Source: an uncultured delta proteobacterium (GTDB taxonomy: Bacteria > Desulfobacterota > WTBG01 > CAIYCZ01). From it: DNA of 64,000 nucleotides. This document shows positions 42,346-57,304 of this stretch, piece by piece. The stretch spans positions 53,399 through 117,398 of the forward strand of contig CAWDOY010000016.1 of the NCBI GenBank assembly GCA_963803975.1. The letters run 5' to 3'. The translations under genes were made by a program, and so were the position numbers. Under the pieces are notes generated by a model. It did not search any database, had not been told where the DNA came from, and was given only the letters and a program-made list of their open reading frames with translations. The stretch's first letter is position 1. Each line of letters begins with the position of its first letter.

Positions 42346-42879
42346 TTAGGCAGGTTTAGGCGGTGTATATTTTGTCAGCTCTACCAGCATGGTGAATGGC
42401 GCAGGGAATACAAAATCACCCGGATTCTCTACCCCCGTCACCAGCACCCCTACCGTGACAAACCCAAAGCTTGAGTTGATATCAACTTTCCGCACAATCT
42501 TCAGCGGCGAGGCTTTGCTGTCAACGATTGCCTTAGGGGCCTGCGGGGTTGTGGTATTAAGCGCATAGGAGGCGCCGATCATCAGAAAGTCCAATTTAAA
42601 CAGAAAATCAGAGGATTTTGCAGTTGGCGTAAGGGTCAGGGTGAGAGTCCCAGCAGGTGCTTCCTCTCCTGTACCCAGTGCAATAATCGTGAACAGATAC
42701 AGAGGACCAAATTTCTGCGCATCAAAAATGTCGCCCACAAAGAACGGAAACTGTTCAGAATACCCGGGCGTGGCAAAGACTAACTCCTGGGCCTGGGCTG
42801 CAGATGGTGCAGTCATGGACGCCGATAGCGTGATAAGGACTGCCAGCGTTAACCAGATAATGTTTTTTCTGTGTTTCAT
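42346..42879 (-). CDS. Hypothetical secreted protein heading the porin-pst operon
   Basis: Signal peptide ending AQA, SD AGGAGG. Confidence 0.7.
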   Translation of the reverse strand: MKHRKNIIWLTLAVLITLSASMTAPSAAQAQELVFATPGYSEQFPFFVGDIFDAQKFGPLYLFTIIALGTGEEAPAGTLTLTLTPTAKSSDFLFKLDFLMIGASYALNTTTPQAPKAIVDSKASPLKIVRKVDINSSFGFVTVGVLVTGVENPGDFVFPAPFTMLVELTKYTPPKPA

Positions 42880-43096: not shown

Positions 43097-43135
43097 CATT
43101 AAGAAGGTATAAAGATTGTGTTAATATTGTGTTAA
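43097..43135 (-). promoter_or_regulatory. Putative Pho box upstream of the porin-pst operon
   Basis: TTAACA-5-TTAACA-5-TTTATA-5-TTAATG, 11-bp period. Confidence 0.75.
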
Positions 43136-43250: not shown

Positions 43251-44333
43251 CTATGCATTCATAAAAACTTCTGCGGGGTAGTAAGCTGTGCGCTTCCCGG
43301 TGCTGAACAGCACCGGCCTGTTGTGCCTGGGGTTGCTGTTTTTTTGCAGATTAAGTTTAAATTCTGAACCGTAAAGACCAAAAACATCCGCGTAATTAAA
43401 CGCCGTGCAGGGCATAAGTGCCAGCGTCTGAACCGGACGATTGCCTTGGAAAGCCTCCCGTATCATGGTGGATGATGCTGCAAACGGCATACCGGGAATG
43501 AACGCTGCCGGGATGTCGGTTTCAACGGTGCAGTCACGGGCTCCCCGTTCAATAAAAATTGCTGAAATGCTGTGCAGGGAGGGGTTAAAATAATATGTTT
43601 CATCGGCAATCTTTTCTTCCAGTTTCTGCAGGGTATCAGCTTCCCCGGTTCTGGGATTAAGGCGATGGTAGTGATCAGCGCCAACAATATAGAAGAGATC
43701 AATGCTCTGGTCCGGGTTTAACGAAGCTATTTTAAACAGGTTCATTTCTCCGTCACAGTCATTCTCCAGGGCAATGGATGAATAGCTGAAAAATGGTGCA
43801 AAAATTTTTATTACTTCCTCCCCTATGAGGTGACGTATCTCCGCAGGGGCCAGCGCTGGCTTGCGGGGATCGCTGCCGGAAATGACATAGATAATGTTAT
43901 CCAGCCTGAAGCGCACCAGGGCGGACAAACCGCTAAGCAGATGTGCCCAGTGGAATGGATTGGCGGCAACAGGGTAGATTCCCACGCGCAGCGTTCTGCT
44001 TACCAGCGGTTTTACAGGATCGTGAGGAGCAGTGCGTATTGCAGCATGAGGGTCAAGTATCTTTCTGTTCAACAGATATTCCGCCTGGTCCAGCAGTTGC
44101 GCGAGGCTGGACAGAATTTCAGTAAACGGGTAACTGGTGAGCGGCAGGTTGAGCATCTGCGACATATCCAGCAACTCCTGATACGCTCTTGTTCTGACTG
44201 CCTCTACTGCAGGATTGCCGCAGCTTCCTGCCTCCGTGTCTATTGCCGGACTGACGGATTGCATAGTAATCTCCTTGGTGTGATTTTTAAATTTCCATGC
44301 AGCGCCCGATCTCTCAAGAGATGAGCGCTGCAT
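43251..44333 (-). CDS. Divergent NadD-like nucleotidyltransferase with N-terminal extension
   Basis: GIYPVAANPFHWAHL, YIVGAD, SSTMIR. Confidence 0.72.
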   Translation of the reverse strand: MQRSSLERSGAAWKFKNHTKEITMQSVSPAIDTEAGSCGNPAVEAVRTRAYQELLDMSQMLNLPLTSYPFTEILSSLAQLLDQAEYLLNRKILDPHAAIRTAPHDPVKPLVSRTLRVGIYPVAANPFHWAHLLSGLSALVRFRLDNIIYVISGSDPRKPALAPAEIRHLIGEEVIKIFAPFFSYSSIALENDCDGEMNLFKIASLNPDQSIDLFYIVGADHYHRLNPRTGEADTLQKLEEKIADETYYFNPSLHSISAIFIERGARDCTVETDIPAAFIPGMPFAASSTMIREAFQGNRPVQTLALMPCTAFNYADVFGLYGSEFKLNLQKNSNPRHNRPVLFSTGKRTAYYPAEVFMNA

Positions 44334-44408: not shown

Positions 44409-44436
44409 TGTTAAGGGAGAATGAAGGTGGTATGAA
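44409..44436 (-). promoter_or_regulatory. Putative Pho box upstream of the NadD-like gene
   Basis: TTCATA-5-TTCATT-5-TTAACA. Confidence 0.6.
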
Positions 44437-45696: not shown

Positions 45697-47433
45697 TTAT
45701 TGGGAAAGATTGACGGGCAAGGTTATGATAATTTTAGTACCCTGGCCCGGTGTGCTTGTCACTTCTATGGCGCCGCTGTGCAGGAGAACGATATGTTTGA
45801 CAATCGAGAGGCCCAGGCCGGTGCCGCCGAGCTGCTTTGAGCGGGAGGCATCTACAACATAAAACCGCTCAAAAATGCGTGGCAGGTGCTCCCGGGGAAT
45901 ACCGATGCCGGTGTCCTGAATTTCTATCAGGACATGCCCGTTGCGCTGCAGCAGGCTTACGGTTATGCCGCCTTTTTCAGTGTACTTAATGGCATTATCA
46001 AGCAGGTTGACAAAGACCTGCTCCAGCTTAAAAGCATCTGCCATTATATCCGGCAGGGCCTGGTCGGCACTAATGGTTAACGAGAGGCCCTTCTCCCTGA
46101 GCCGGGGCTCAAATATTCTCTGCATCTGCTCGAGCATGATTTTCAGATCACAGGCTTCCAGGCTCAGGGCAGCGCCTTTTTCCTCAAGCTCGGAGAGCAG
46201 CAGCAGATCTTCCACGATATTAATCAGCCGGTCAGTATTCCTTCTGATGATGTTCAGGTAGCCGCGGTTTTTATCATCTATGTCATCTTCGATTGTTTCC
46301 ACAAAACCTTTGATGGCGGTGAGCGGGGTGCGCAGCTCATGGGATACATTCACCACAAAATCCTTTTTTATTTTTTCCACCCGCTTAAGCTCGGTTACAT
46401 CATGGCACATGACTACTGTTTTATCCTGGGAGGCAAGGGGGGTGGCGCTGCACAGGAAAGCGCTGTCCTGAATGGTGATTTGATCCTCACAACGGGTTTT
46501 TTCCCGTGCGACCCGGTCAATGAGGGCGCTGAATTGCGGCTCTCGGATAACTTCCCAGTACAGCTTGCCTTCGACTGCAGATGCCTGCAGCGCTTTTCTG
46601 ATGCTCTCATTGCTCAGTACAATGGTTCCCTTCCGGTCAAGCACCAGCAACCCTTCCTGAATAGAAAAAATGATGTTGTTCAGCTCTTCCTTCTGGGAGG
46701 TTATCTCGGCAAAGAAGCTGCTTAGGGTGTCGCTCATTGCGTTGAAGCTGTCCCCAAGCTCTTTTAATTCATCAGCTCTTTTCAGGAATACATGGGCAGA
46801 GAAATCTCCTGCTGCCACCCGCCGCGAAGCGGCAATAAGCTCCCGGATCGGCCTGGTCAGGTTGTAAGAGTAGAACAGCGCAATGAGCAGGGACAGGATG
46901 CTGATGACCAGCACGCTGTAGAGAACGCTCAGCTGCAGCCTTTCCAGCAGGGTATTGATATCCTGCATGAACAGGCTGACACGAAGCACTCCGAGCGTTA
47001 CACCCTTTTGTTTTATGGGAAGAGCCACATAGAGCATTTCCTGCTGCACCGTGCTGCTGAAGCGCACTGCTTGTCCCACTTGTCCCTGCAAAGCCTGGAT
47101 TATCTCAGCCCTGAGATTATGCTTCTCCATGTCCCGCGGATTTTTTTCTGAATCCGCCACCACCACGCCGGACGGATCAATGACGGTAATCCTGGTCTTG
47201 ATATGTTTTCCCAGGTCCTTGACAAAGGCATCAATCTCCGGGAAGCGCTTTTCCGCGACCAGCGGGGTTATCTTTGTTTCCAGGGTAAAACAGAGGTGCG
47301 TGAGGTCACCGGTCAGCGACTCTATGTAGTATTCCCTGATGGTCCTGAAGGAAAAGAAGAGTATCAGGACCGAGAGCAGTATAATAATCAGCAGGTAGCC
47401 GCCCAATGATTTGGCAAACAGAGATTTTTTCAT
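45697..47433 (-). CDS. phoR: Sensor histidine kinase, PhoR-type (HAMP-PAS-HisKA-HATPase)
   Basis: FVVNVSHELRTPLT, NLLDNAIKYT, GGTGLGLSIVKH; phosphate gene context. Confidence 0.9.
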   Translation of the reverse strand: MKKSLFAKSLGGYLLIIILLSVLILFFSFRTIREYYIESLTGDLTHLCFTLETKITPLVAEKRFPEIDAFVKDLGKHIKTRITVIDPSGVVVADSEKNPRDMEKHNLRAEIIQALQGQVGQAVRFSSTVQQEMLYVALPIKQKGVTLGVLRVSLFMQDINTLLERLQLSVLYSVLVISILSLLIALFYSYNLTRPIRELIAASRRVAAGDFSAHVFLKRADELKELGDSFNAMSDTLSSFFAEITSQKEELNNIIFSIQEGLLVLDRKGTIVLSNESIRKALQASAVEGKLYWEVIREPQFSALIDRVAREKTRCEDQITIQDSAFLCSATPLASQDKTVVMCHDVTELKRVEKIKKDFVVNVSHELRTPLTAIKGFVETIEDDIDDKNRGYLNIIRRNTDRLINIVEDLLLLSELEEKGAALSLEACDLKIMLEQMQRIFEPRLREKGLSLTISADQALPDIMADAFKLEQVFVNLLDNAIKYTEKGGITVSLLQRNGHVLIEIQDTGIGIPREHLPRIFERFYVVDASRSKQLGGTGLGLSIVKHIVLLHSGAIEVTSTPGQGTKIIITLPVNLSQ

Positions 47434-48110
47434 GATTCTATTTTATAGCCTATGCCCCGCACATTTTTTATAAATTTACCGGCGGTGCGCAGCTTATCCC
47501 GCAGATTTTTTACGTGGACGTCCACGGTCCGGTCAAGCACTGCCTTTTCCCTGCCCCACAGATAATCAAGTATCTTGTCCCGGGAAAAGACCCACCCCGG
47601 CTTTGATGCGAGCACTTGTAAAATCTTAAACTCGGTTGAGGTGACTTCTATTTTTTCTCCCGCAACCTTCACTTCAAACTTTTCCGTATCAATCGTGAGG
47701 ATGCCGCCTATTTCAATTTTCTGCGTGACTTCTTTCTGTGTCAGACGCCGCAGGGCAACCTTCACCCGGGCCACCAGCTCTTTAGGGGAAAACGGCTTGG
47801 TCACATAGTCATCCGCCCCCAGCTCAAGGCCCAGAATTTTGTCTGTCTCTTCCGCTTTTGCCGTGAGCATGATGATGGGGATGGCTGCAAGCGCATCCTT
47901 TTTCTTCAGGTGCTTGCAGATTTCAAGCCCGTCAGCATCAGGGAGCATCAGATCAAGTATGACCAGGTCAGGGGTTTGTGCTTTGAGGAAGGCAAAAAAT
48001 TTTTCAGCAGTGGTAAACCCATGCGTGATAAAACCAGCTCTTTTGAGGTTGACGGTGACGAGCTCTACGATATCGGGCTCATCATCTACGATGGCGATAA
48101 CTTTACTCAT
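47430..48110 (-). CDS. phoB: OmpR family response regulator, PhoB/PhoP-type
   Basis: DLMLPD, GADDYVTKPFS, RTVDVHV..LR.KL; coupled to phoR. Confidence 0.9.
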   Translation of the reverse strand: MSKVIAIVDDEPDIVELVTVNLKRAGFITHGFTTAEKFFAFLKAQTPDLVILDLMLPDADGLEICKHLKKKDALAAIPIIMLTAKAEETDKILGLELGADDYVTKPFSPKELVARVKVALRRLTQKEVTQKIEIGGILTIDTEKFEVKVAGEKIEVTSTEFKILQVLASKPGWVFSRDKILDYLWGREKAVLDRTVDVHVKNLRDKLRTAGKFIKNVRGIGYKIES

Positions 48111-48210: not shown

Positions 48211-49137
48211 TCAAACAAATAAGCGTTGCTGCCTGCGCTGGTCAAGCCGGGTTATGCCTGCAGCCTGCGCTGCGCGTACGGCATCCTGATATTCAGCCCC
48301 GGTTATGGCGCGTCCCAGTTCGGCAAACCGTGCAGCATCACCGCACGGCCGGTACTGGTCCATGATGTTGACATAGGTGTTTTTAGAAACCTCGTCAGCC
48401 AAAAACACCATGAGCTTGTTGGTGCCGGCTTTTCCTTCCGGCATGACCAGGTGCCGGACCAGCAGCCCGCGCACGGCCACTCCATCCTCATCTATCTCAA
48501 GGTCCCCGACCTGGCGATGCATCTCTTTTACCGCGGCCCGCGCTGTTTCCGGATAATCAGGGGCTCTGCAGTATCTGTCGGCAATATCCGCGTCCGCAAA
48601 CTTCAGGTCAGGCATGTAGATGTCAAAGATATCGTCCAGCAGGGCAAGCGTTGCAACACTGTCATAGCCGCTGGAATTATATATCAGGGGAACATGCAGT
48701 CCCGCATCAATTGCAAGGGGCAGGGCTTCCAGTATCTGCGGGATAACATGGGACGGGGTAACAAAGTTGATATTGTGTACTCCGCGCTCCTGAAGCCCTA
48801 CCATGATTGCGGCAAGGCCTGCCGGTTTAACCTCATAGCCCTCGCCCTGATGGCTGATATCATAATTCTGGCAGAAGACGCAGCGCAGGCTGCAGTGGGT
48901 AAAAAAGATCGTGCCGGAACCATTGCGGCCCACCAGCGGTTCTTCCTCACCAAAGTGAGGGCCATAGCTTGACACCGCGGCATAGCGGCCGGTGCGGCAA
49001 ACACCCAGCTCGTCTTTGAGACGGTTGACGTTACAGTTGCGCGGGCATAGAACACAGCTCGTTAAAATTGAAAGAGCTGCTTCAATCCGCTCCTGGAGGA
49101 TGTTCTCCCGGTACGCTTTCAGATAGGCAGGTTCCAT
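48211..49137 (-). CDS. Radical SAM protein (PflX-like)
   Basis: CVLCPRNC, GSGTIFF..CSLRCVFCQN, RHLVMP. Confidence 0.9.
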   Translation of the reverse strand: MEPAYLKAYRENILQERIEAALSILTSCVLCPRNCNVNRLKDELGVCRTGRYAAVSSYGPHFGEEEPLVGRNGSGTIFFTHCSLRCVFCQNYDISHQGEGYEVKPAGLAAIMVGLQERGVHNINFVTPSHVIPQILEALPLAIDAGLHVPLIYNSSGYDSVATLALLDDIFDIYMPDLKFADADIADRYCRAPDYPETARAAVKEMHRQVGDLEIDEDGVAVRGLLVRHLVMPEGKAGTNKLMVFLADEVSKNTYVNIMDQYRPCGDAARFAELGRAITGAEYQDAVRAAQAAGITRLDQRRQQRLFV

Positions 49138-49176
49138 GGTATACGAGCTGTCAGCTTTCAGCCATCAGCGGTCAGT

Positions 49177-49803
49177 TTATTCCTGCCGCAGAACGACAAC
49201 TTCAATTTTACCAGCCAGCTTTTCTTTAAACAGCGCCGCATCCTTTTCAGACCCGACTATGGCGTTAAAATGCATGGGGATGGCTATTGCCGGCTTGATG
49301 GCAAGCGCTGCCTGCACTGCTTCCTCAGCAGTCATCACGTAGGTGCCGGAGACCGGCAGGAGCGCGATATCGGTTTTAATGCTGTTCATTTCCGGGATGA
49401 AATCAGTGTCTCCCGCGTGATAGATGCGCACCCCTTCGATTGTCACAATAAAACCGAGCATGCCCGAGGCCTTCGGGTGGAAAGTTTTATTCGTATTGTA
49501 GGAGGGCACTACTTCGACTGCTATATTCCCGACAGTCAGCTTGTCCCCCGGTTTCACCACCCTGATGCTGCCTTTCAGCTTTTTGGCTGTTGCCGCGTCG
49601 GTCACAATCACCGTATCTTTTTTCTGGATTTTTTTAATGTCATCTTCCGAGCAGTGGTCAAAATGGTCATGGCTGATAAAGATGATATCAGCCGGCACTG
49701 CGGATTTTATCTGAAAGGGATCAAAGTAGATTACTTTCCCGCTGTCAATCCTGAAGCCGTCATGGCCCAGCCAGTGAATCTTCTTTATGACATCCTGTAT
49801 CAT
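49177..49803 (-). CDS. MBL-fold metallohydrolase
   Basis: ISHDHFDH, YHAGDT, IPMH. Confidence 0.92.
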   Translation of the reverse strand: MIQDVIKKIHWLGHDGFRIDSGKVIYFDPFQIKSAVPADIIFISHDHFDHCSEDDIKKIQKKDTVIVTDAATAKKLKGSIRVVKPGDKLTVGNIAVEVVPSYNTNKTFHPKASGMLGFIVTIEGVRIYHAGDTDFIPEMNSIKTDIALLPVSGTYVMTAEEAVQAALAIKPAIAIPMHFNAIVGSEKDAALFKEKLAGKIEVVVLRQE

Positions 49804-49914
49804 AGACTCCTCCCTGTGGCTCTGTTCTTAAAAAACTGAGAATGGAAAAATTATCAGACATCCTCATAGGGATGTCAACAGCTAATAACGACAAACAGGG
49901 TGTTTCAGCTTGTT

Positions 49915-49953
49915 TTCACGCATTTTTCATAAATTCTTAACATGCAGTTAACA
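49915..49953 (+). promoter_or_regulatory. Putative Pho box upstream of the MTase-PSD-GT operon
   Basis: TTCACG-5-TTCATA-5-TTAACA-5-TTAACA. Confidence 0.72.
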
Positions 49954-50031
49954 ATCCTTTTCTAAAATATACAACAAAGGAAATAAGGTGCGGGCGGTAT
50001 ATCTCATCGAACACAACAAAGAGGTTATAGA

Positions 50032-50727
50032 ATGGAATCATTAAGCCTGAGCGAAGAGCTTTTAAAAGACATTTTTAAATATGCAAAACCGTTGGGGCAT
50101 AACGAGGACAACAAAAATCTCAATCTTGGTTTCGGCTTCCTTTACTATGGCATGGTGCGGGCGCTGAGGCCGCGCCATATTGTGGTCATCGGCTCTGGTT
50201 TTGGTTTCAGCGTGGTGTGCCTTGCCCTGGGAATAAAGGATAACAGAAATGATGGCATGCTGAGCTTTGTTGACCCGTCCTATTCACTCCTGAAAGACGG
50301 CCCCTTTAAAACCATCGGGGGAAATGGACAGTGGAGCGATCCGGAAAAGGTTAACGAGCACTTTAAAAAATTTTCCGTAGAGCAGGTGGTCACCCATTAC
50401 AAATACCCGAACGACCGGTTCTTTCGCTTCTATGATGAGCTGAAGCTGCCGGAGATAGACATCGCATTTATTGACGGCAACCATGCTTTCCGGGAAGTCA
50501 AATATGACTTTCTCAATGTACTGAAGCATTCGCACAAAAACACCTATATTTTTATGCACGATACCAACATCTACATCCGTGAACTCATTCGCCATGCAGG
50601 GGTCAAACGGTGGCTCAATGTTTTAAAACATGAAGAAGAGTTTTTCGAGATAGTTAATTTCCCCTTTTCATCAGGGGTGGCCCTGGTGCGGGTATTACAG
50701 GAGAACATATGTCATCACATGCAATGA
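50032..50727 (+). CDS. Class I SAM-dependent methyltransferase (Methyltransf_24-like)
   Basis: VVIGSGFGFS, IDIAFIDGNH, FMHD. Confidence 0.85.
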   Translation: MESLSLSEELLKDIFKYAKPLGHNEDNKNLNLGFGFLYYGMVRALRPRHIVVIGSGFGFSVVCLALGIKDNRNDGMLSFVDPSYSLLKDGPFKTIGGNGQWSDPEKVNEHFKKFSVEQVVTHYKYPNDRFFRFYDELKLPEIDIAFIDGNHAFREVKYDFLNVLKHSHKNTYIFMHDTNIYIRELIRHAGVKRWLNVLKHEEEFFEIVNFPFSSGVALVRVLQENICHHMQ

Positions 50728-51404
50728 TTGGCCCTTTGGCAGGGGCTATTCTCATCTTGAGCTATATGTATTGGCGCTATGAGTGGTTTTTTCGCAATCC
50801 TCCGCGAAAACCGCCCGAAGAATCGGGCCTTGTGAGCCCTGCAGACGGCACGGTGGTATATGTTAAACAGGTGCTGCCCGGTGAGGAGGTCCTCACGATT
50901 AAGAAAGGATGCGGGGTCACTATCAGTGACATTGTGCACGAAGATCTCACCTATCCAAAATTTGTGATCGGCATTTTCATGAGTCCATTCGATGTGCACT
51001 ATAATCGAGCGCCGCTGTCAGGACTGGTGGAGTTTATCCGTCACCACCCTGCGGGAATGAAAAACTTCTACATGCGGCCGATGCACCTGAGAACCATATT
51101 CCGGAAAAAGCCGTACTTTAAAAACAGCCTGCATATTCTCCATAATGAAAGAACGGTCACAAAACTCAATTGCCTGTATCGAGGAATTCCGCTTCCCTGC
51201 TATCTGGTGCAGATAGCAGGGAAAAGCGTAAACAGGATAGAAAGTTATATGCGCCCCGGCGCTTCCATTCGCAGAGGCGAAGTGTTTGGAATGATTAAAA
51301 TGGGCTCCCAGGTTGATGTCATTGTGCGCCAGGCCGCAGGCATGCAGGTGAAGGTCAAGCCGGGGGACCGGGTCCGTGCCGGAGAAACCATTCTTATTGC
51401 ATAA
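50724..51404 (+). CDS. psd: Phosphatidylserine decarboxylase family protein
   Basis: FFRNP, SPADG, FMSPFDVH.NRAP, NER, GSQVD cleavage site; ATGA coupling to the MTase. Confidence 0.88.
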   Translation: MIGPLAGAILILSYMYWRYEWFFRNPPRKPPEESGLVSPADGTVVYVKQVLPGEEVLTIKKGCGVTISDIVHEDLTYPKFVIGIFMSPFDVHYNRAPLSGLVEFIRHHPAGMKNFYMRPMHLRTIFRKKPYFKNSLHILHNERTVTKLNCLYRGIPLPCYLVQIAGKSVNRIESYMRPGASIRRGEVFGMIKMGSQVDVIVRQAAGMQVKVKPGDRVRAGETILIA

Positions 51405-51420
51405 GGTATAAGGTCAGATT

Positions 51421-53883
51421 ATGAAAAAAAATCTCAGAAGCGCAGCAATGACCAGGACTATCGTGAAAGCTGATCTGCATGTGCATTCAAAGTATTCCAA
51501 ACGTCCGACCGAGTGGATTCTGCAGAAAATAGGCTGCCCGGAGAGCTTCACCGAACCAACGCATCTATATAATGTTGCAAAGCAGCGGGGCATGTCGCTG
51601 GTAACTATAACCGATCATAACATCATTGACGGCTGCCTTGAGATAGCCCATCTCCCCGGCACATTCATCAGCGAGGAAGTGACCACCTATTTCCCCGATG
51701 ACGGGTGCAAGGTGCATGTCCTGGTGTACAATATTACCGAAGCAGCACACGAAGATATTCAGAAGATAAGGGAAAACATATTTGACCTGGTAAACTATCT
51801 TAACGAGCAGCACATTGTGCATGTGATAGCCCACCCTTTGTACGCGGTGAATGAGCGCTTAACCATCGAGCATTTTGAAAAACTGCTGCTTCTTTTTAAG
51901 AATTTTGAATTGAATGGAGCGCGCGACGAGCAGCAGAACTCTTGCCTGAAGCTTATCCTCTCTCAACTGCAGCCCAGGGATATTACACAACTTACTGAGA
52001 AACATCGGATCGTGCCCCAGTTCCCGGTCCCCTGGTTAAAAAATCTAACAGCCGGCTCTGATGATCACAGCTCTATAAACATCGGTCGGTCATACACTTA
52101 CCAGGAAGGGTCTGACTGGATTGAAGATTTTTTACTCGGCATCGAGGCAAACAGGGCACAAGGGTTTACCAGAACTGCAAGCCCTCACACCCTGGCACAT
52201 GACATTTACAGTATCGCCTATCAGTTTTATAAGAAAAAATTGGGTTTTGAACGCCATGTAAACAAAGATATGCTGCTGCGCTTCCTCGATCAGTTTCTGC
52301 AGGGAAATCCCGAAGAAGAGAAAGGGTTGTTTGCCCGGATTTATCTTCTGTGGCACCAGACAAATCACCCCGGGACTAATGACGGCGCGCAGCCCCAGAC
52401 GATAGAGGGTGCCCTGCGCTACGAAGCACAAAAACTTCTTCTCGATGATCCGCAGCTGGTAAACGCTTTTAAACGCAGCAAAGATGATGCGTACCATGTC
52501 GAGAAGACCTGGTTTTATTTTGTGAATCAGGTATCAGACAAAGTGTCTTCACAGTTTGCAAACCATTTCCTTGATCACCTCACCAGTGCAAACATTTTTA
52601 ATATATTTCAATCCATTGGCTCTGCGGGGGCCCTTTACACGCTGCTTTCGCCGTATTTTCTGTCATTTTCGCTGTTTGCCCGCCAGCGGCAGTTCAGTAA
52701 AAAAGTCCAAGAGCGGTTTACAAAACACAGTTCCTCAGATTCCGGTAATAATGGAAGGGCAAAGATCGCTCACTTTACCGATACGTTTTATGAAGTAAAT
52801 GGCGTTGCCATAACACTGCAGCAGCAGGTGGAGCTTGCCATGAAGTCAAACAAAGACCTCACGGTAATTACCTGTGATGCTGAGCATAACCTTGCCATGC
52901 CGGGGGTAAAAAATTTCAAGCCGATTGGTGTGTATGATCTGCCGGAATACCCGGGGCAGAAGCTTTTCTACCCATCACTGCTGGAGATGCTCAATTACTG
53001 CTATGAAGAAAATTTTACCCATATCCATTCCGCAACACCGGGGCCGATAGGGCTGGCCGCTCTGCTGGTGAAGCATATTCTGAAGCTCCCGTTCAGCGGA
53101 ACCTATCACACAGCGCTTCCCCAGTATGCGCAATACCTCACCGGAGATGCCGCTATTGAAGAACTGATGTGGAAATATATGCTCTGGTATTATGACCAGA
53201 TGGACTTTATTTATGTCCCGTCCCGGAGCACCGGGGATGAGCTGGCAGAGAAAGGCATCAGCCCGCAAAAGATAAAACTCCTGCCGCGCGGGGTTGATAC
53301 GAATCGTTTCAATCCGTCAAAACGCAACGGATATTTTGAGCGCTACCCCGCGGTGAAAACTGGCCTCAAACTGCTCTATGTGGGGCGCGTGTCCAAAGAA
53401 AAAAACCTGCATGTATTGGCAAACGCTTTTAAAATGCTGGTGCAGCTTATGGATAACGTGACGCTGGTAATTGTCGGGGACGGGCCATACCTTGCGGAAA
53501 TGCAGGAGACCATGAGCGGGACGCCCTGCGTATTTACCGGATACCTTGAGGGTGAGGAGCTGGCAGCAGTCTATGCATCGTGTGATTTATTTGTCTTTCC
53601 GAGTACCACGGATACGTTTGGCAATGTGGTATTGGAGGCGCAGGCCTCCGGCATTCCCGTTATTGTTACCGATGAGGGAGGCCCCCGGGAAAATATAATT
53701 CCGGGAGAAACCGGCCTGGTAGTAGAATCCGATCATGAGCTGAGCCTGCTTGAAGCAATCCACGGGCTCCTGTCAGATCCGCAACGCCTGCGGCTCATGG
53801 GAAATGCAGCCCGCCAGTACATGGAAAGCCGCTCATTTGAAGGCGTCTTTGATACAGTGTGGGAACTGTATCAGAGCCAGTAA
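51421..53883 (+). CDS. PHP-domain / GT4 glycosyltransferase fusion
   Basis: DLHVHS, TDHN, AHP, GSDDH; TDTF..VNGV, ATPGPIG, YHT, YVGRVSKEKN, DTFGNVVLEA. Confidence 0.9.
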   Translation: MKKNLRSAAMTRTIVKADLHVHSKYSKRPTEWILQKIGCPESFTEPTHLYNVAKQRGMSLVTITDHNIIDGCLEIAHLPGTFISEEVTTYFPDDGCKVHVLVYNITEAAHEDIQKIRENIFDLVNYLNEQHIVHVIAHPLYAVNERLTIEHFEKLLLLFKNFELNGARDEQQNSCLKLILSQLQPRDITQLTEKHRIVPQFPVPWLKNLTAGSDDHSSINIGRSYTYQEGSDWIEDFLLGIEANRAQGFTRTASPHTLAHDIYSIAYQFYKKKLGFERHVNKDMLLRFLDQFLQGNPEEEKGLFARIYLLWHQTNHPGTNDGAQPQTIEGALRYEAQKLLLDDPQLVNAFKRSKDDAYHVEKTWFYFVNQVSDKVSSQFANHFLDHLTSANIFNIFQSIGSAGALYTLLSPYFLSFSLFARQRQFSKKVQERFTKHSSSDSGNNGRAKIAHFTDTFYEVNGVAITLQQQVELAMKSNKDLTVITCDAEHNLAMPGVKNFKPIGVYDLPEYPGQKLFYPSLLEMLNYCYEENFTHIHSATPGPIGLAALLVKHILKLPFSGTYHTALPQYAQYLTGDAAIEELMWKYMLWYYDQMDFIYVPSRSTGDELAEKGISPQKIKLLPRGVDTNRFNPSKRNGYFERYPAVKTGLKLLYVGRVSKEKNLHVLANAFKMLVQLMDNVTLVIVGDGPYLAEMQETMSGTPCVFTGYLEGEELAAVYASCDLFVFPSTTDTFGNVVLEAQASGIPVIVTDEGGPRENIIPGETGLVVESDHELSLLEAIHGLLSDPQRLRLMGNAARQYMESRSFEGVFDTVWELYQSQ

Positions 53884-54048
53884 TTCTCTACTGCTATTTA
53901 TTTTGGCAGCACTTTTTAACAGCTCTCTTGCCATCATCTCCAGCCGTACATTTCATGTGGAGCTATTTTATTATACTGCCCTGATATGCATACCTGCTGA
54001 CTGTTGACCCGCCCTGATTTTACGAGCCCCCTTAAAATTCTTTAAAAA

Positions 54049-54092
54049 TTAATAGAACGTTCATTTTCTCTTCATAATGCCATGGTACTATT
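54049..54092 (+). promoter_or_regulatory. Putative Pho box + extended -10
   Basis: TTAATA-5-TTCATT-5-TTCATA, then TGGTACTAT. Confidence 0.55.
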
Positions 54093-54217: not shown

Positions 54218-54391
54218 ATGAATGAAAATATCCTGGACTCAAAATTGACACTGCTGGTAGAGGAATATATAGACAAATTTATTGAGATCCCTCCAATTTT
54301 TTGTAATACCCTGTCTGAAAACAGAAAAAAGGAAATGATCCATCAAGCCTTATTAACCAATACGCCCATAGAGAACCTGCAGGCAGCATAA
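54218..54391 (+). CDS. Unannotated 57-aa small protein MNENILDSKL...IENLQAA
   Basis: SD AGGAGGT, promoter upstream, terminator downstream. Confidence 0.65.
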   Translation: MNENILDSKLTLLVEEYIDKFIEIPPIFCNTLSENRKKEMIHQALLTNTPIENLQAA

Positions 54392-55516: not shown

Positions 55517-57136
55517 TTACTTTTTTATCTCTACAAAAATCGGATTGGAATAGAACCACAGATCCTGGTAAGCTTTTTGGCCATCATTTGTGCCCTGGAG
55601 GTCATCAATGAGCGGATTACCGTCAGCATCTGTCTCATTCGGGATATTTATCGGCAGGTTGGTGCCTCTGAGCCTGAAGTACATGTTATTGCGCACATTG
55701 TTAAAATAGAATTTAATCACCGTCCACCCATCCTCATCTTTTTCCCAGCTGGTATTATCAAACTGGGCAATTATTTTTGTACTCTCGTTGGTGTCTTTAG
55801 AATATGCAGGTGTTCCAGCCGTTGCCATGCCGGTTACATCGCCGGCAATAAGATCAATGTGGTCAACCGTAACATTATCACCATTATTATTAACTTTGGG
55901 GCTCTTGAATCGTATGGTAAACCTTATACCACTGCCCTTTTTGATCTTCATGGTTTCACCCATAGAAGCAGTGTCCTTAGGGCCTTTAAAGAGAGATCGT
56001 GCACTAAAATCAAGCTTGTTGATAAGGTCGCCGTGTACGGCAAATACGTTACCTGAGCGAAGACCGTTAACAATTTCTTCTAAAGAATACTTTTTATCGG
56101 AATCTTCATCAGTAACAAAAGTATGGGTTTTTGCATACTCGCCTGGCCAGAAATCAGCATCATCAGCACTGCTGTGAAAGTCGGAGTTGACATATGTCCA
56201 GAAATGGCGACCTTCGCCAAGGAGCGAATCCCACAGGCCACCGACCTTGGCAATCATATAATCTGCGCCGCCATAGGTGCGGGCTTTATACGTAATATCA
56301 TTACCATTGGCATCCTTGAATGGACCGTTACCGTAGCCACCACGGGATGATTCTTTCTGATGGCCGGGGATTCCCTCAAATCCGAAGCACACATCGGGAG
56401 CTGCGTTGTTAAAGTCGCGAATATGTGCAATGGTGTATTTCAGCTTCCGGGATGGGTGATTGAAGAGAAAGTAGCTTGTGTCCCTATAGTTGTCCTGCAG
56501 CCACTGAGCACCGGCAACTGCGTCAGCATGGGTAACATTTTTCTTTACCAGGCCTTCAGCAGCACGGCTGGTATCTTTATCGCTCTGATCAAACATATAT
56601 TCAAAATCGCTGATTGGTACTGCATCCTCAGCAACAATACCCACGCTTGCATGCTCATGAGAGGGGCAATTCCATTCAACGCCCTGAATTATTCCCTTCT
56701 TTTTATATTCGTCACGGAATTCCAGAATCAGGGGGAACGAATAGTCTTGAAGGGACTGCCAGCGCCACATGGCCTGATGGCCGCCAGACATTATGAGATC
56801 GCCAAGAAAAACAGTGGGGGGAGTGATCGAGGGATCATCCCAGTAGAGACCTTCAGGATTTGTGGTATACGCACCACCGTGCTCAGAATTAGCTATCCAG
56901 TTCAAACCAAAGACATCAAATGCATGGTAGAAAACATCTGCCTCAGTATGGCTGCCGTCTGTCAGCCAGGTATGGTTGTGAAAATCACCAGCCATCCATT
57001 TACCTCTCACCTGCTCCTCTTGATCCTGTTTGGCATTAACCGAAGAAACACCGGTGATCATGAGAAACAGCCCTGCTGCCATAAGCAGTGACATGGTTTT
57101 AGCTCTACTTTTTTTGTAATGGTTTAAAAATTTCAT
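55517..57136 (-). CDS. Secreted PHP-like metallophosphoesterase
   Basis: Signal peptide, GDFHNHT..TDG, SEHGG, G.EW, NHPSR, NSDFH, WFYSNPIF. Confidence 0.82.
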   Translation of the reverse strand: MKFLNHYKKSRAKTMSLLMAAGLFLMITGVSSVNAKQDQEEQVRGKWMAGDFHNHTWLTDGSHTEADVFYHAFDVFGLNWIANSEHGGAYTTNPEGLYWDDPSITPPTVFLGDLIMSGGHQAMWRWQSLQDYSFPLILEFRDEYKKKGIIQGVEWNCPSHEHASVGIVAEDAVPISDFEYMFDQSDKDTSRAAEGLVKKNVTHADAVAGAQWLQDNYRDTSYFLFNHPSRKLKYTIAHIRDFNNAAPDVCFGFEGIPGHQKESSRGGYGNGPFKDANGNDITYKARTYGGADYMIAKVGGLWDSLLGEGRHFWTYVNSDFHSSADDADFWPGEYAKTHTFVTDEDSDKKYSLEEIVNGLRSGNVFAVHGDLINKLDFSARSLFKGPKDTASMGETMKIKKGSGIRFTIRFKSPKVNNNGDNVTVDHIDLIAGDVTGMATAGTPAYSKDTNESTKIIAQFDNTSWEKDEDGWTVIKFYFNNVRNNMYFRLRGTNLPINIPNETDADGNPLIDDLQGTNDGQKAYQDLWFYSNPIFVEIKK

Positions 57137-57276: not shown

Positions 57277-57304
57277 TATAAACGGCGCATGAATTTTTAA
57301 TGAA
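57277..57304 (-). promoter_or_regulatory. Putative Pho box upstream of the secreted phosphoesterase
   Basis: TTCATT-5-TTCATG-5-TTTATA. Confidence 0.55.

Follow-up and report, generated by a model that had tools for sequence, protein, structure and literature searches.

The window analysed here, a stretch of 64,000 nucleotides (nt) from a contig of an uncultured delta proteobacterium, contains a plus-strand group of three genes which, judged from sequence, probably serves lipid remodelling under phosphate starvation; gene 3 of this trio would be a glycolipid synthase, and genes 1 and 2 would form a functionally linked pair acting on a lipid head group. Gene 1 (50032..50727, +; 231 amino acids, aa) is by its open reading frame (ORF) and Pfam match a putative class I methyltransferase dependent on S-adenosylmethionine (SAM), of the Methyltransf_24 family; gene 2 (50709..51404, +, alternative start at 50724; 231 aa), assigned by the same two means, is a divergent paralog of the phosphatidylserine decarboxylase (PSD) family; and gene 3 (51421..53883, +; 820 aa) encodes a fusion of a PHP phosphoesterase domain with a GT4 glycosyltransferase, i.e., the two-domain type of Dde_3613 from Desulfovibrio alaskensis G20. 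An earlier note on this DNA had described the three genes as tightly coupled, and the junctions bear this out. The stop codon TGA of gene 1 (50725-50727) falls within the gene 2 frame, where ATG codons at 50709 and 50724 are both candidate starts, giving an overlap of 19 nt or 4 nt (ATGA) depending on the start chosen; GGAG lies 5 nt upstream of the ATG at 50709. Genes 2 and 3 are separated by the 16 nt that the note had given. Contigs from two sediment metatranscriptome runs (one study) matched the trio at about 99% identity and spanned both the gene 1/2 junction (50403-51294) and the gene 2/3 junction (51265-51537), and no indels were reported within the trio in these RNA-library contigs; they are weak evidence for an operon, reflecting presence in an RNA library and neither a single transcript nor regulation. 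No RNA-library contig among four runs covered 49808-50158, an absence that carries no weight. The terminator-like hairpin directly 3' of gene 3 (53891..53909, +) is a weak one, as such hairpins were no more numerous across the region than expected from shuffled sequence.

The trio lies amid genes for phosphate acquisition and its control. Upstream and divergent from it are genes for a metallo-beta-lactamase (MBL)-fold hydrolase, a radical SAM protein, a phoB-like response regulator (47430-48110, −) and a phoR-like histidine kinase (45697-47433, −; both by Pfam), and a PHO4/PitA transporter; farther along the minus strand are porin, pstS/C/A/B, phoU, ppx, CHAD-CYTH, and nucleotide pyrophosphatase-type phosphodiesterase genes. 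Because phosphate genes (phoB/phoR-like, pst, phoU, ppx, PHO4/PitA) surround the trio, the window is, by its gene content, a phosphate gene island. The phoBR genes had been placed 2 kb away, in agreement with a phoB-like start 1.9 kb from gene 1.

We searched both strands for arrays of TT[ACT]A[CT] units at an exact 11-bp spacing. A predicted Pho box of four units (TTCAC, TTCAT, TTAAC, TTAAC; 49915..49952, +, the units starting at 49915, 49926, 49937 and 49948) was found 80-117 nt before the gene 1 start, and the last unit is followed at a 12-nt distance by a candidate −10 hexamer, TAAAAT (49964..49969, +), which was not matched in a consensus promoter scan that requires a −35 hexamer. The earlier note had likened this box to one before the pst operon, and these are the only two four-unit arrays in the window (49915, +, and 43135, −); the second (TTAAC, TTAAC, TTTAT, TTAAT; 43098..43135, −) lies upstream of an ORF of 177 aa (42346-42879), the porin gene and pstSCAB-phoU. 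Three-unit boxes precede ORF 43251-44333 (44410..44436, −), a 57-aa ORF at 54218-54391 (54049..54075, +), and the gene for a CehA/PHP-like metallohydrolase at 55517-57136 (57278..57304, −). Over the whole 4.25-Mb genome, three-unit arrays gave 10 matches on both strands, or 8 sites after merging, compared with 3, 4, 1, 1 and 5 matches in five genomes simulated with a second-order Markov model. Five of the 8 sites fall within 43.1-57.3 kb of the window and each is upstream of a gene on the same strand, so that the 11-bp direct repeats stand before the pst cluster, gene 1, the gene of the secreted phosphoesterase-like protein, and two further ORFs in the island. The box exceeds chance and marks the phosphate gene island; its binding by PhoB is a prediction. 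The three array sites beyond the island comprise one within a transposase-like region and two before membrane glycosyltransferase-like genes. The latter (G000:C44:11473, −, ahead of an ArnC-like GT2, a small membrane protein and an ArnT-like protein; and C34:20552, +, with a 551-aa tetratricopeptide-repeat membrane protein) could either have arisen by chance or belong to envelope genes in the same regulon.

A three-unit array is kept before the gene 1 ortholog at L011, a locus from a same-family genome, with four further arrays nearby. In Syntrophobacteraceae loci, conserved GTAAC / ATCAY / GACAT units with an identical period were seen by eye some 100 nt ahead of gene 1, and at locus L025, also by eye, four such units at 11-bp spacing were seen before a pstS-like gene. 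Other lineages seem to use Pho-box units of a GTAAC/GTCAC type, as far as such inspection of sequence can tell. Genes for pstS, pstC/A, pstB, phoH, ppk or ppx adjoin the homologous loci in other lineages.

The GT4 (GT-B) domain of gene 3 (52768..53883, +; about residues 450-820) is clear from Pfam (Glycos_transf_1, 123.3 bits; Glyco_transf_4, 76.3 bits; residues 459-799), and the profile matches in PDB were PimB', BshA and MshA. The best NCBIfam model, GlcN_PG_synth (NF053787), scored 135.2 bits, far under its cut-off of 480. The PHP domain (51457..52245, +; about residues 13-275) was recognized mainly by its predicted structure. An AlphaFold2 model of residues 1-450 (mean predicted local distance difference test, pLDDT, 80.4) was compared with PDB by Foldseek, and the top matches were all PHP proteins at probability 1.00 and E 5e-8 to 2e-5 (7ug9 at E 5e-8, then 7rty, 5zb8, 2anu and 3e38; among the matches by name are RNase AM, PsfC, EndoQ, TM0559 and BVU_3505). 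PHP proteins carry a characteristic list of His/Asp/Glu metal-ligand motifs, and in alignments of 16 and 18 homologs the residues D18, H20, H22, D65, H66, N67, E86, H99, H138, D214, D215 and H216 were invariant. On the strength of this model the N-terminus of gene 3 is a PHP domain. Between the two domains lies a helical linker (52246..52755, +; about residues 276-445), a predicted membrane-association segment; residues 255-437 are helical by DSSP of the model, and a moderately hydrophobic helix is found at 402-420 (Kyte-Doolittle 1.32 over 19 residues).

The fusion is a widespread protein. Of 7997 candidates scored, 3318 were relatives with E no higher than 0.001; the best 120 of these were 56-98% identical, mostly 773-877 aa long, and those with names were called only 'glycosyltransferase' and came from Syntrophobacteraceae, Desulfomonilaceae and Desulfobacterales. 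A fusion relative was encoded at 554 of 598 pattern matches in contigs from one genome per species, carriers including Desulfosarcina, Desulfobacter, NaphS2 and Solidesulfovibrio/Desulfovibrio, and gene 3 shares 52% identity with members from Desulfovibrionaceae (L080, L083) across about 800 aa. Genetic data exist for this type: Bosak et al. (2016; PMC5193443) report that, at low phosphate, a D. alaskensis G20 mutant with a transposon in Dde_3613 has neither monoglycosyldiacylglycerol (MGDG) nor glucuronosyl-diacylglycerol (GADG), and that its growth is poor at phosphate concentrations of 10 and 2 uM. The gene is named there 'glycosyltransferase group I, Agt homolog', and the automatic annotation in the supplement gives it an N-terminal PHP domain and a group-1 glycosyltransferase; the words PHP, phosphoesterase, phospholipase and PlcP do not appear in the main text of that paper. 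Because of this mutant phenotype together with the PHP/group-1 annotation, gene 3 is, by its domain make-up, a member of an experimentally anchored family. The earlier note had proposed a membrane-remodelling operon and a new pathway. The first proposal gains from the phosphate context and from the genetics of the Dde_3613 family; the second must be narrowed, as the PHP/GT4 part was already studied in Desulfovibrio and is a known system, not a new pathway. The new part is the methyltransferase-PSD pair, on which our literature searches found no paper. These searches also returned nothing relevant on the trio or on a PHP-type phospholipase C, and no paper linking a methyltransferase or a PSD to PlcP-Agt, a link likewise absent from the consulted passages of PMC9239053.

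Apparently truncated variants of the fusion were also noted. Five loci from same-order or same-class relatives (L005-L009) encode proteins of 607-615 aa that align with gene 3 residues 14-628, with the PHP domain, the helical linker and the first GT4 lobe only, and these adjoin OlsF-like, PIN-PhoH and MJ1255-family glycosyltransferase genes; they look like a shortened fusion variant in other putative phosphate-starvation lipid islands. Of the 80 species loci with the fusion, 23, all of them lacking the methyltransferase-PSD pair, encode a radical SAM protein of 432 aa immediately next to it (e.g., L020:7454-8752). The radical SAM gene of the window (48211-49137) was considered as a counterpart of this protein and rejected, there being no similarity at E 1e-5. 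In four complete or long assemblies, G046, G066, G067 and G069 (the genomes of L025, L069, L072 and L078), the fusion has OlsF-like genes within its vicinity, at distances of 3-10 kb, a proximity that fits a clustering of phosphate-starvation lipid genes.

Gene 2 is a divergent member of the PSD family. It scored 136.3 bits against Pfam PS_Dcarbxylase (PF02666; cut-off 22) and fell below all 14 NCBIfam PSD models (best 121.9 bits vs 183), whereas the housekeeping PSD of the same genome, on contig C1, passes two of them. The two proteins are 32% identical, and the unusual insertion pointed out in the earlier note proved to be three insertions relative to the housekeeping PSD, conserved among the paralogs. 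In PSDs, the SPADG, VH.NR and G-S motifs form the Asp-His-Ser self-cleavage site and the pyruvoyl group. The SPADGT, VHYNR and GSQVD motifs of gene 2 align with SPADGT, VHVNR and GSR of the housekeeping protein, and G199-S200-Q201, D46 and H97 were invariant in 13 paralogs; the N-terminus is weakly hydrophobic. An IQ-TREE analysis of 101 PSDs placed 43 of 43 paralogs in one clade (UFBoot 94 / SH-aLRT 99), a result showing coherence of a group that had been defined by an identity gap and not an independent prediction. The question of whether a housekeeping psd-pssA pair exists elsewhere was answered in the affirmative: psd is on C1 and pssA, above cut-off, on C8, and both are also present in the 17 other trio genomes, each of which has at least 2 PSD genes, one of them adjoining pssA in most. 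With pssA above cut-off in 18 of 18 trio genomes, phosphatidylserine (PS) is available, and the idea that trio genomes lack pssA, which would have excluded PS as a substrate, was rejected on the same count.

For gene 1, Methyltransf_24 (59.8 bits; cut-off 26.3) was the sole family matched in 21 of 21 aligned orthologs. Pfam assigns the phospholipid N-methyltransferases of the PmtA and PEMT types to Methyltransf_11/25 and PEMT, and at E up to 1 these families were matched by none of the 21 orthologs. The AlphaFold2 model (pLDDT 78) had as its top Foldseek matches SafC, TomG, CCoAOMT and Rv0187 (E 3e-11 to 1e-9; TM 0.6-0.7), so that the modelled fold is closest to cation-dependent O-methyltransferases. 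Class I enzymes of that kind have an Asp/Asp/Asn metal site, and D148, H151, H176, D177 and N179 of gene 1 are invariant or nearly so in the sequence alignment. Atlas clusters for gene 1 were only generic methyltransferase clusters, some sharing the CmcI / rhamnosyl O-methyltransferase family. PDB searches by sequence with the methyltransferase and with the PSD paralog gave no match.

We examined if the trio recurs in other genomes, a check that the earlier note had proposed: the METHYLTRANSFERASE-PSD pair accompanied the fusion as a full trio in 26 of the 80 species loci found with the fusion, the rest being one locus cut by a contig end, 6 without upstream DNA, 45 with neither gene, and 2 with the methyltransferase and a decayed PSD. 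In these last two, from Syntrophobacteraceae (remnants at L035:4626-5001 and L036:3501-4046), the methyltransferase and the fusion are intact, and what is left of the PSD is 54 aa (52% identity) in one locus and 172 aa (28%) in the second. In a FastTree phylogeny of the fusion the trio carriers fall in several clades of one half (Syntrophobacteraceae; Desulfomonilaceae/Syntrophales; Desulfobacca; the window with L011), and the Desulfobacteraceae/Desulfosarcina half has no carrier. The methyltransferase was found in none of the 17 fusion-bearing genomes examined that lack the trio, whereas all 6 trio genomes examined have it once, at the trio. Relatives of the PSD paralog in metagenomes formed two identity groups, 47-59% (26 loci) and 39% or less. 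Among the 26 loci the methyltransferase is directly upstream in 22, three lack upstream DNA, and in one (L107) the 1.8 kb before the PSD paralog does not contain it; the fusion is directly downstream in 8, and two metagenome contigs (L097, L101) place the pair beside a Metallophos gene and then a GT4 gene, with no fusion. The remaining metagenome loci, apart from five taken up below, are cut by contig ends. Two singleton database proteins carry the methyltransferase and PSD domains on one chain, and could be real fusions or frameshifts.

The Metallophos proteins of L097 and L101 are LpxH-like, below the LpxH cut-off, and the neighbouring GT4 is 31% identical to the GT4 domain of the fusion and has the same best NCBIfam model. 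Since gene order and family are those of PlcP-Agt as described in PMC9239053, we take these loci to represent non-orthologous displacement of the PHP domain by a putative PlcP. Such displacement of PHP by a PlcP-like gene speaks for a phospholipase-C role of the PHP domain as well as for a functional tie of the pair to remodelling, and in this respect the PlcP/Agt analogy drawn earlier has been strengthened.

We propose that phosphate starvation switches on the trio, likely via the predicted PhoB sites, and that the trio would then replace membrane phospholipids with phosphorus-free lipids. The PHP half of gene 3 likely performs the phospholipase-C-type step done elsewhere by PlcP, which would free diacylglycerol and recover the phosphate head group; the GT4 half would glycosylate the diacylglycerol, and the hydrophobic helix likely anchors the enzyme at the membrane. 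Genes 1 and 2 would act as one functional pair and take part in this remodelling as well: self-cleavage at G199-S200 likely turns the PSD paralog into a pyruvoyl enzyme, which would decarboxylate a serine-type (alpha-amino-acid) lipid head group, and the O-methyltransferase-like gene 1 product would modify the same lipid with SAM. Our tentative preference for the product, held with well under even confidence, is a second, amine-bearing lipid from the diacylglycerol/PS pool, made beside the glycolipids and not a mere duplicate synthesis of phosphatidylethanolamine (PE). We favour it because Desulfovibrio has its glycolipids without the pair and OlsF-like genes occur both with and without the pair, and because PS is available everywhere and a phospholipid-making decarboxylase under Pho control would be paradoxical. 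Replacement of ornithine lipid by the product of the pair was considered and rejected, as OlsF-like genes (610-711 aa) are equally frequent among the trio and non-trio genomes examined (9 of 17 in each group); no OlsF-like gene was found in the present genome. In a bolder version, which we regard as doubtful, the pair would use diacylglycerol from the PHP (or PlcP) step to build a new phosphorus-free amino lipid: a head group, SAM-derived or of serine type, would be attached and then decarboxylated to give a phosphate-less analogue of PE, and a second PSD-like gene (with the Lgt-like and 816-aa proteins described below) would make a related lipid. This version fits because of the tight pairing, the tie to a diacylglycerol-producing step and the divergence of the paralog; the ordinary O-methyltransferase fold of the gene 1 model speaks against transfer of an amino-acid group from SAM to diacylglycerol.

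Several observations weigh against remodelling by the trio as we propose it. Concerning gene 3, Pfam PHP (PF02811) was sub-threshold (15.3 bits vs 26.4, E 0.027, residues 18-74), we know of no PHP-family phospholipase C, the link to Dde_3613 rests on an automatic annotation line and the domain architecture of the family, and no full-length fusion was found in the same-genus relative G001 (91% complete, 610 contigs). Concerning control, only 3 of the 80 other loci (L011, L046, L065) had a site matching the strict box pattern, and the regulators fall under NCBIfam cut-offs: the best model for the phoB-like gene, PhoB TIGR02154, gave 243.6 bits (cut-off 296.2), and the phoR-like kinase scored 372.3 with PnpS (cut-off 400) and 292.1 with PhoR (cut-off 334.2). 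Concerning the pair, Desulfovibrio makes MGDG and GADG without it, so that it is dispensable for both; five loci (L098, L106, L108, L112, L116) have the pair with 900 nt or more of downstream DNA and neither the fusion nor a PlcP-like gene; the trio has no enzyme that attaches a serine-type head group to a phosphorus-free lipid; gene 1 resembles an ordinary metal-dependent O-methyltransferase; and OlsF-like genes are found in trio and non-trio genomes alike.

How else might these data be read? The pair could supply the fusion and not make a new membrane lipid, an explanation we consider somewhat doubtful. The PSD paralog would convert PS to PE, which the methyltransferase would perhaps methylate, and PE would pass to the PHP/PlcP phospholipase C and on to glycolipids, i.e., lipid derived from CDP-diacylglycerol would be channelled under phosphate stress and the product of the pair would be an intermediate. 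The universal presence of pssA in the trio genomes makes the starting lipid available, every PSD catalytic motif is kept in the paralog, the pair is tied to a phospholipase-C step in two non-homologous forms, and the trio would then cover all steps from PS to glycolipid with no further genes. The housekeeping psd, however, already performs the conversion of PS to PE and adjoins pssA in most other trio genomes; a paralog with 32% identity, three insertions and a clade of its own is more than a regulatory duplicate needs; the methyltransferase is O-methyltransferase-like and outside the Pfam families of phospholipid N-methyltransferases; and Desulfovibrio and Desulfobacteraceae use the fusion without the pair. 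Genes 1 and 2 might instead have separate jobs on different molecules, the methyltransferase O-methylating the glycolipid sugar and the PSD paralog being only a stress isozyme. The nearest folds of gene 1, metal-dependent O-methyltransferases acting on vicinal hydroxyls, would suit this, as would its CmcI / rhamnosyl O-methyltransferase neighbours in the Atlas and the constant presence of a GT4 gene near the pair where a partner is seen. We judge it unlikely in view of how closely the two genes travel: they occur together in 22 of 23 loci with upstream DNA, overlap at their junction, are joined in the two singleton proteins, and fusion-bearing genomes that lack the PSD paralog also lack the methyltransferase.

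Two further alternatives concern the fusion and the box. That the fusion joins a glycoside-phosphate synthase to a phosphatase and makes a soluble solute, with the logic of sucrose-phosphate synthase/phosphatase and no part in membrane lipids, is very improbable. PHP enzymes are often phosphomonoesterases, and GT4 families do include sucrose-phosphate synthase-like enzymes; the G20 mutant in a protein of the same two-domain type nevertheless had no glycolipids, a hydrophobic helix lies between the PHP and GT4 domains, the neighbours are lipid enzymes (PSD, OlsF-like, Lgt-like), and the closest GT4 models are those of enzymes with lipid substrates (GpgS, PimB', MGlcDAG synthase). The box, for its part, might not control the trio at all, being a chance AT-rich repeat or serving the divergent MBL-hydrolase/radical-SAM/phoB/phoR genes. 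It sits in a divergent intergenic region of 228 nt in which a strong sigma-70-like promoter (11/12 matches; 49878-49850) faces away from the trio, and the regulators are below the PhoB/PhoR cut-offs. This seems quite unlikely to us, as the units are oriented towards gene 1 with the last of them 12 nt before TAAAAT, five of the 8 array sites of the genome are in the island and each ahead of a same-strand gene, L011 keeps the arrangement of box and gene 1, and phosphate genes flank the homologous loci of other lineages.

Some features near the trio or the fusion deserve mention. The genes for the MBL-fold hydrolase and the radical SAM protein (308 aa), which together occupy 48211-49803 (−) between the box and phoB and have the strong sigma-70-like promoter (49878-49850) ahead of them, are in the same order in L011 and may be co-transcribed with phoBR. 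Beyond the trio, an AT-rich gap of 1.6 kb contains the 57-aa ORF (54218-54391, +), which has a good ribosome-binding site as well as the three-unit box upstream. It is followed by the CehA/PHP-like gene (55517-57136, −), encoding a 539-aa protein with a signal-peptide-like N-terminus and a metallohydrolase domain of the CehA/McbA family (PHP-like; 55.4 bits, cut-off 80); this may be a secreted phosphoesterase induced by phosphate starvation, and a 47% identical homolog adjoins the trio in L027. The frames of pstS, pstC and pstB appeared split, as did terC at 28.5-29.5 kb (split-frame positions in the window: 36474, 37607, 39050, 39521/2, 39546, 39866 and 40529/31). Contigs from four DNA runs (four studies) were each one base shorter at these positions, and the pst splits are probably single-base insertion errors of the window assembly and not broken pst genes. 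Elsewhere, in Desulfosarcina/Desulfobacteraceae, a second module adjoins the fusion (L049:3-4139, L072:1-3206, L045:794-3292), made up of an Lgt-like protein, a long PSD-like protein of 338-371 aa that misses the NCBIfam cut-offs, and an 816-aa protein without a family match (a 'hypothetical protein' in the Atlas). Five of 17 trio genomes (G043, G045, G046, G052, G055) have this module too, at a distance of 4-17 kb from the trio, and it could be another head-group pathway.

Phosphorus-free lipids are central to the phosphorus economy of bacteria and are markers of phosphate limitation in anoxic sediments, and carriers of the trio (Syntrophobacteraceae, Desulfomonilaceae, Syntrophales, Desulfobaccaceae) are common in peat and freshwater sediments. 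Two questions are raised. One is whether a PHP domain serves as the phospholipase C of anaerobes in place of PlcP. The other is what a Pho-linked PSD paralog and its inseparable methyltransferase produce: for a cell short of phosphate to induce a decarboxylase of phospholipid head groups is paradoxical, and this gives good reason to expect either a new lipid or a new diacylglycerol feed into glycolipids. If the doubtful version with a phosphorus-free amino lipid were true, decarboxylated diacylglyceryl-amino-acid lipids would be a hidden lipid class of anaerobic sediment bacteria.

The trio may be compared with several known systems. In the betaine-lipid route of phosphate starvation, BtaA/BtaB use SAM-dependent enzymes of class I fold to place an amino-acid-type head group on diacylglycerol, yielding diacylglyceryl-trimethylhomoserine (DGTS). 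This is a possible model for a SAM enzyme and a decarboxylase acting on diacylglycerol from the PHP step; however, DGTS synthesis uses no decarboxylase and the methyltransferase of the trio is of the Methyltransf_24 / COMT-like kind. The BtaA family PF11899 had no match in this genome, and was likewise silent in 14 of 14 control genomes. The housekeeping short Psd/Asd type (PF02666) shares family and length with gene 2 and differs in its partner, which for gene 2 is always the methyltransferase and not pssA. GpgS, the GlcNAc-phosphatidylglycerol synthase of P. aeruginosa (PMC12713373), is a GT4 that glycosylates a membrane lipid, as gene 3 is proposed to do, and its model NF053787 was the top one both for the GT4 of gene 3 (135.2 bits) and for the stand-alone GT4 of L097 (143.1 bits; cut-off 480); as described there, it has no PHP domain and its partners are a deacetylase and a flippase. 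Dde_3613 of D. alaskensis G20, from the same phylum, has by its annotation the two-domain make-up of gene 3, and the Desulfovibrio loci L079, L080 and L083, unlike the trio, have the fusion without the methyltransferase or the PSD paralog. In the PlcP-Agt pathway, by which Proteobacteria such as Methylosinus, SAR11 and Agrobacterium remodel their lipids under phosphate limitation (PMC9239053), PlcP is a metallophosphoesterase usually encoded directly upstream of agt. The phosphoesterase there is a Metallophos (calcineurin-like) protein, for which the Pfam search of the trio gave no match, whereas in gene 3 it would be a PHP domain fused to the transferase; the predicted logic is the same, a metal-dependent phosphoesterase freeing diacylglycerol from which a GT4 makes MGDG and GADG.

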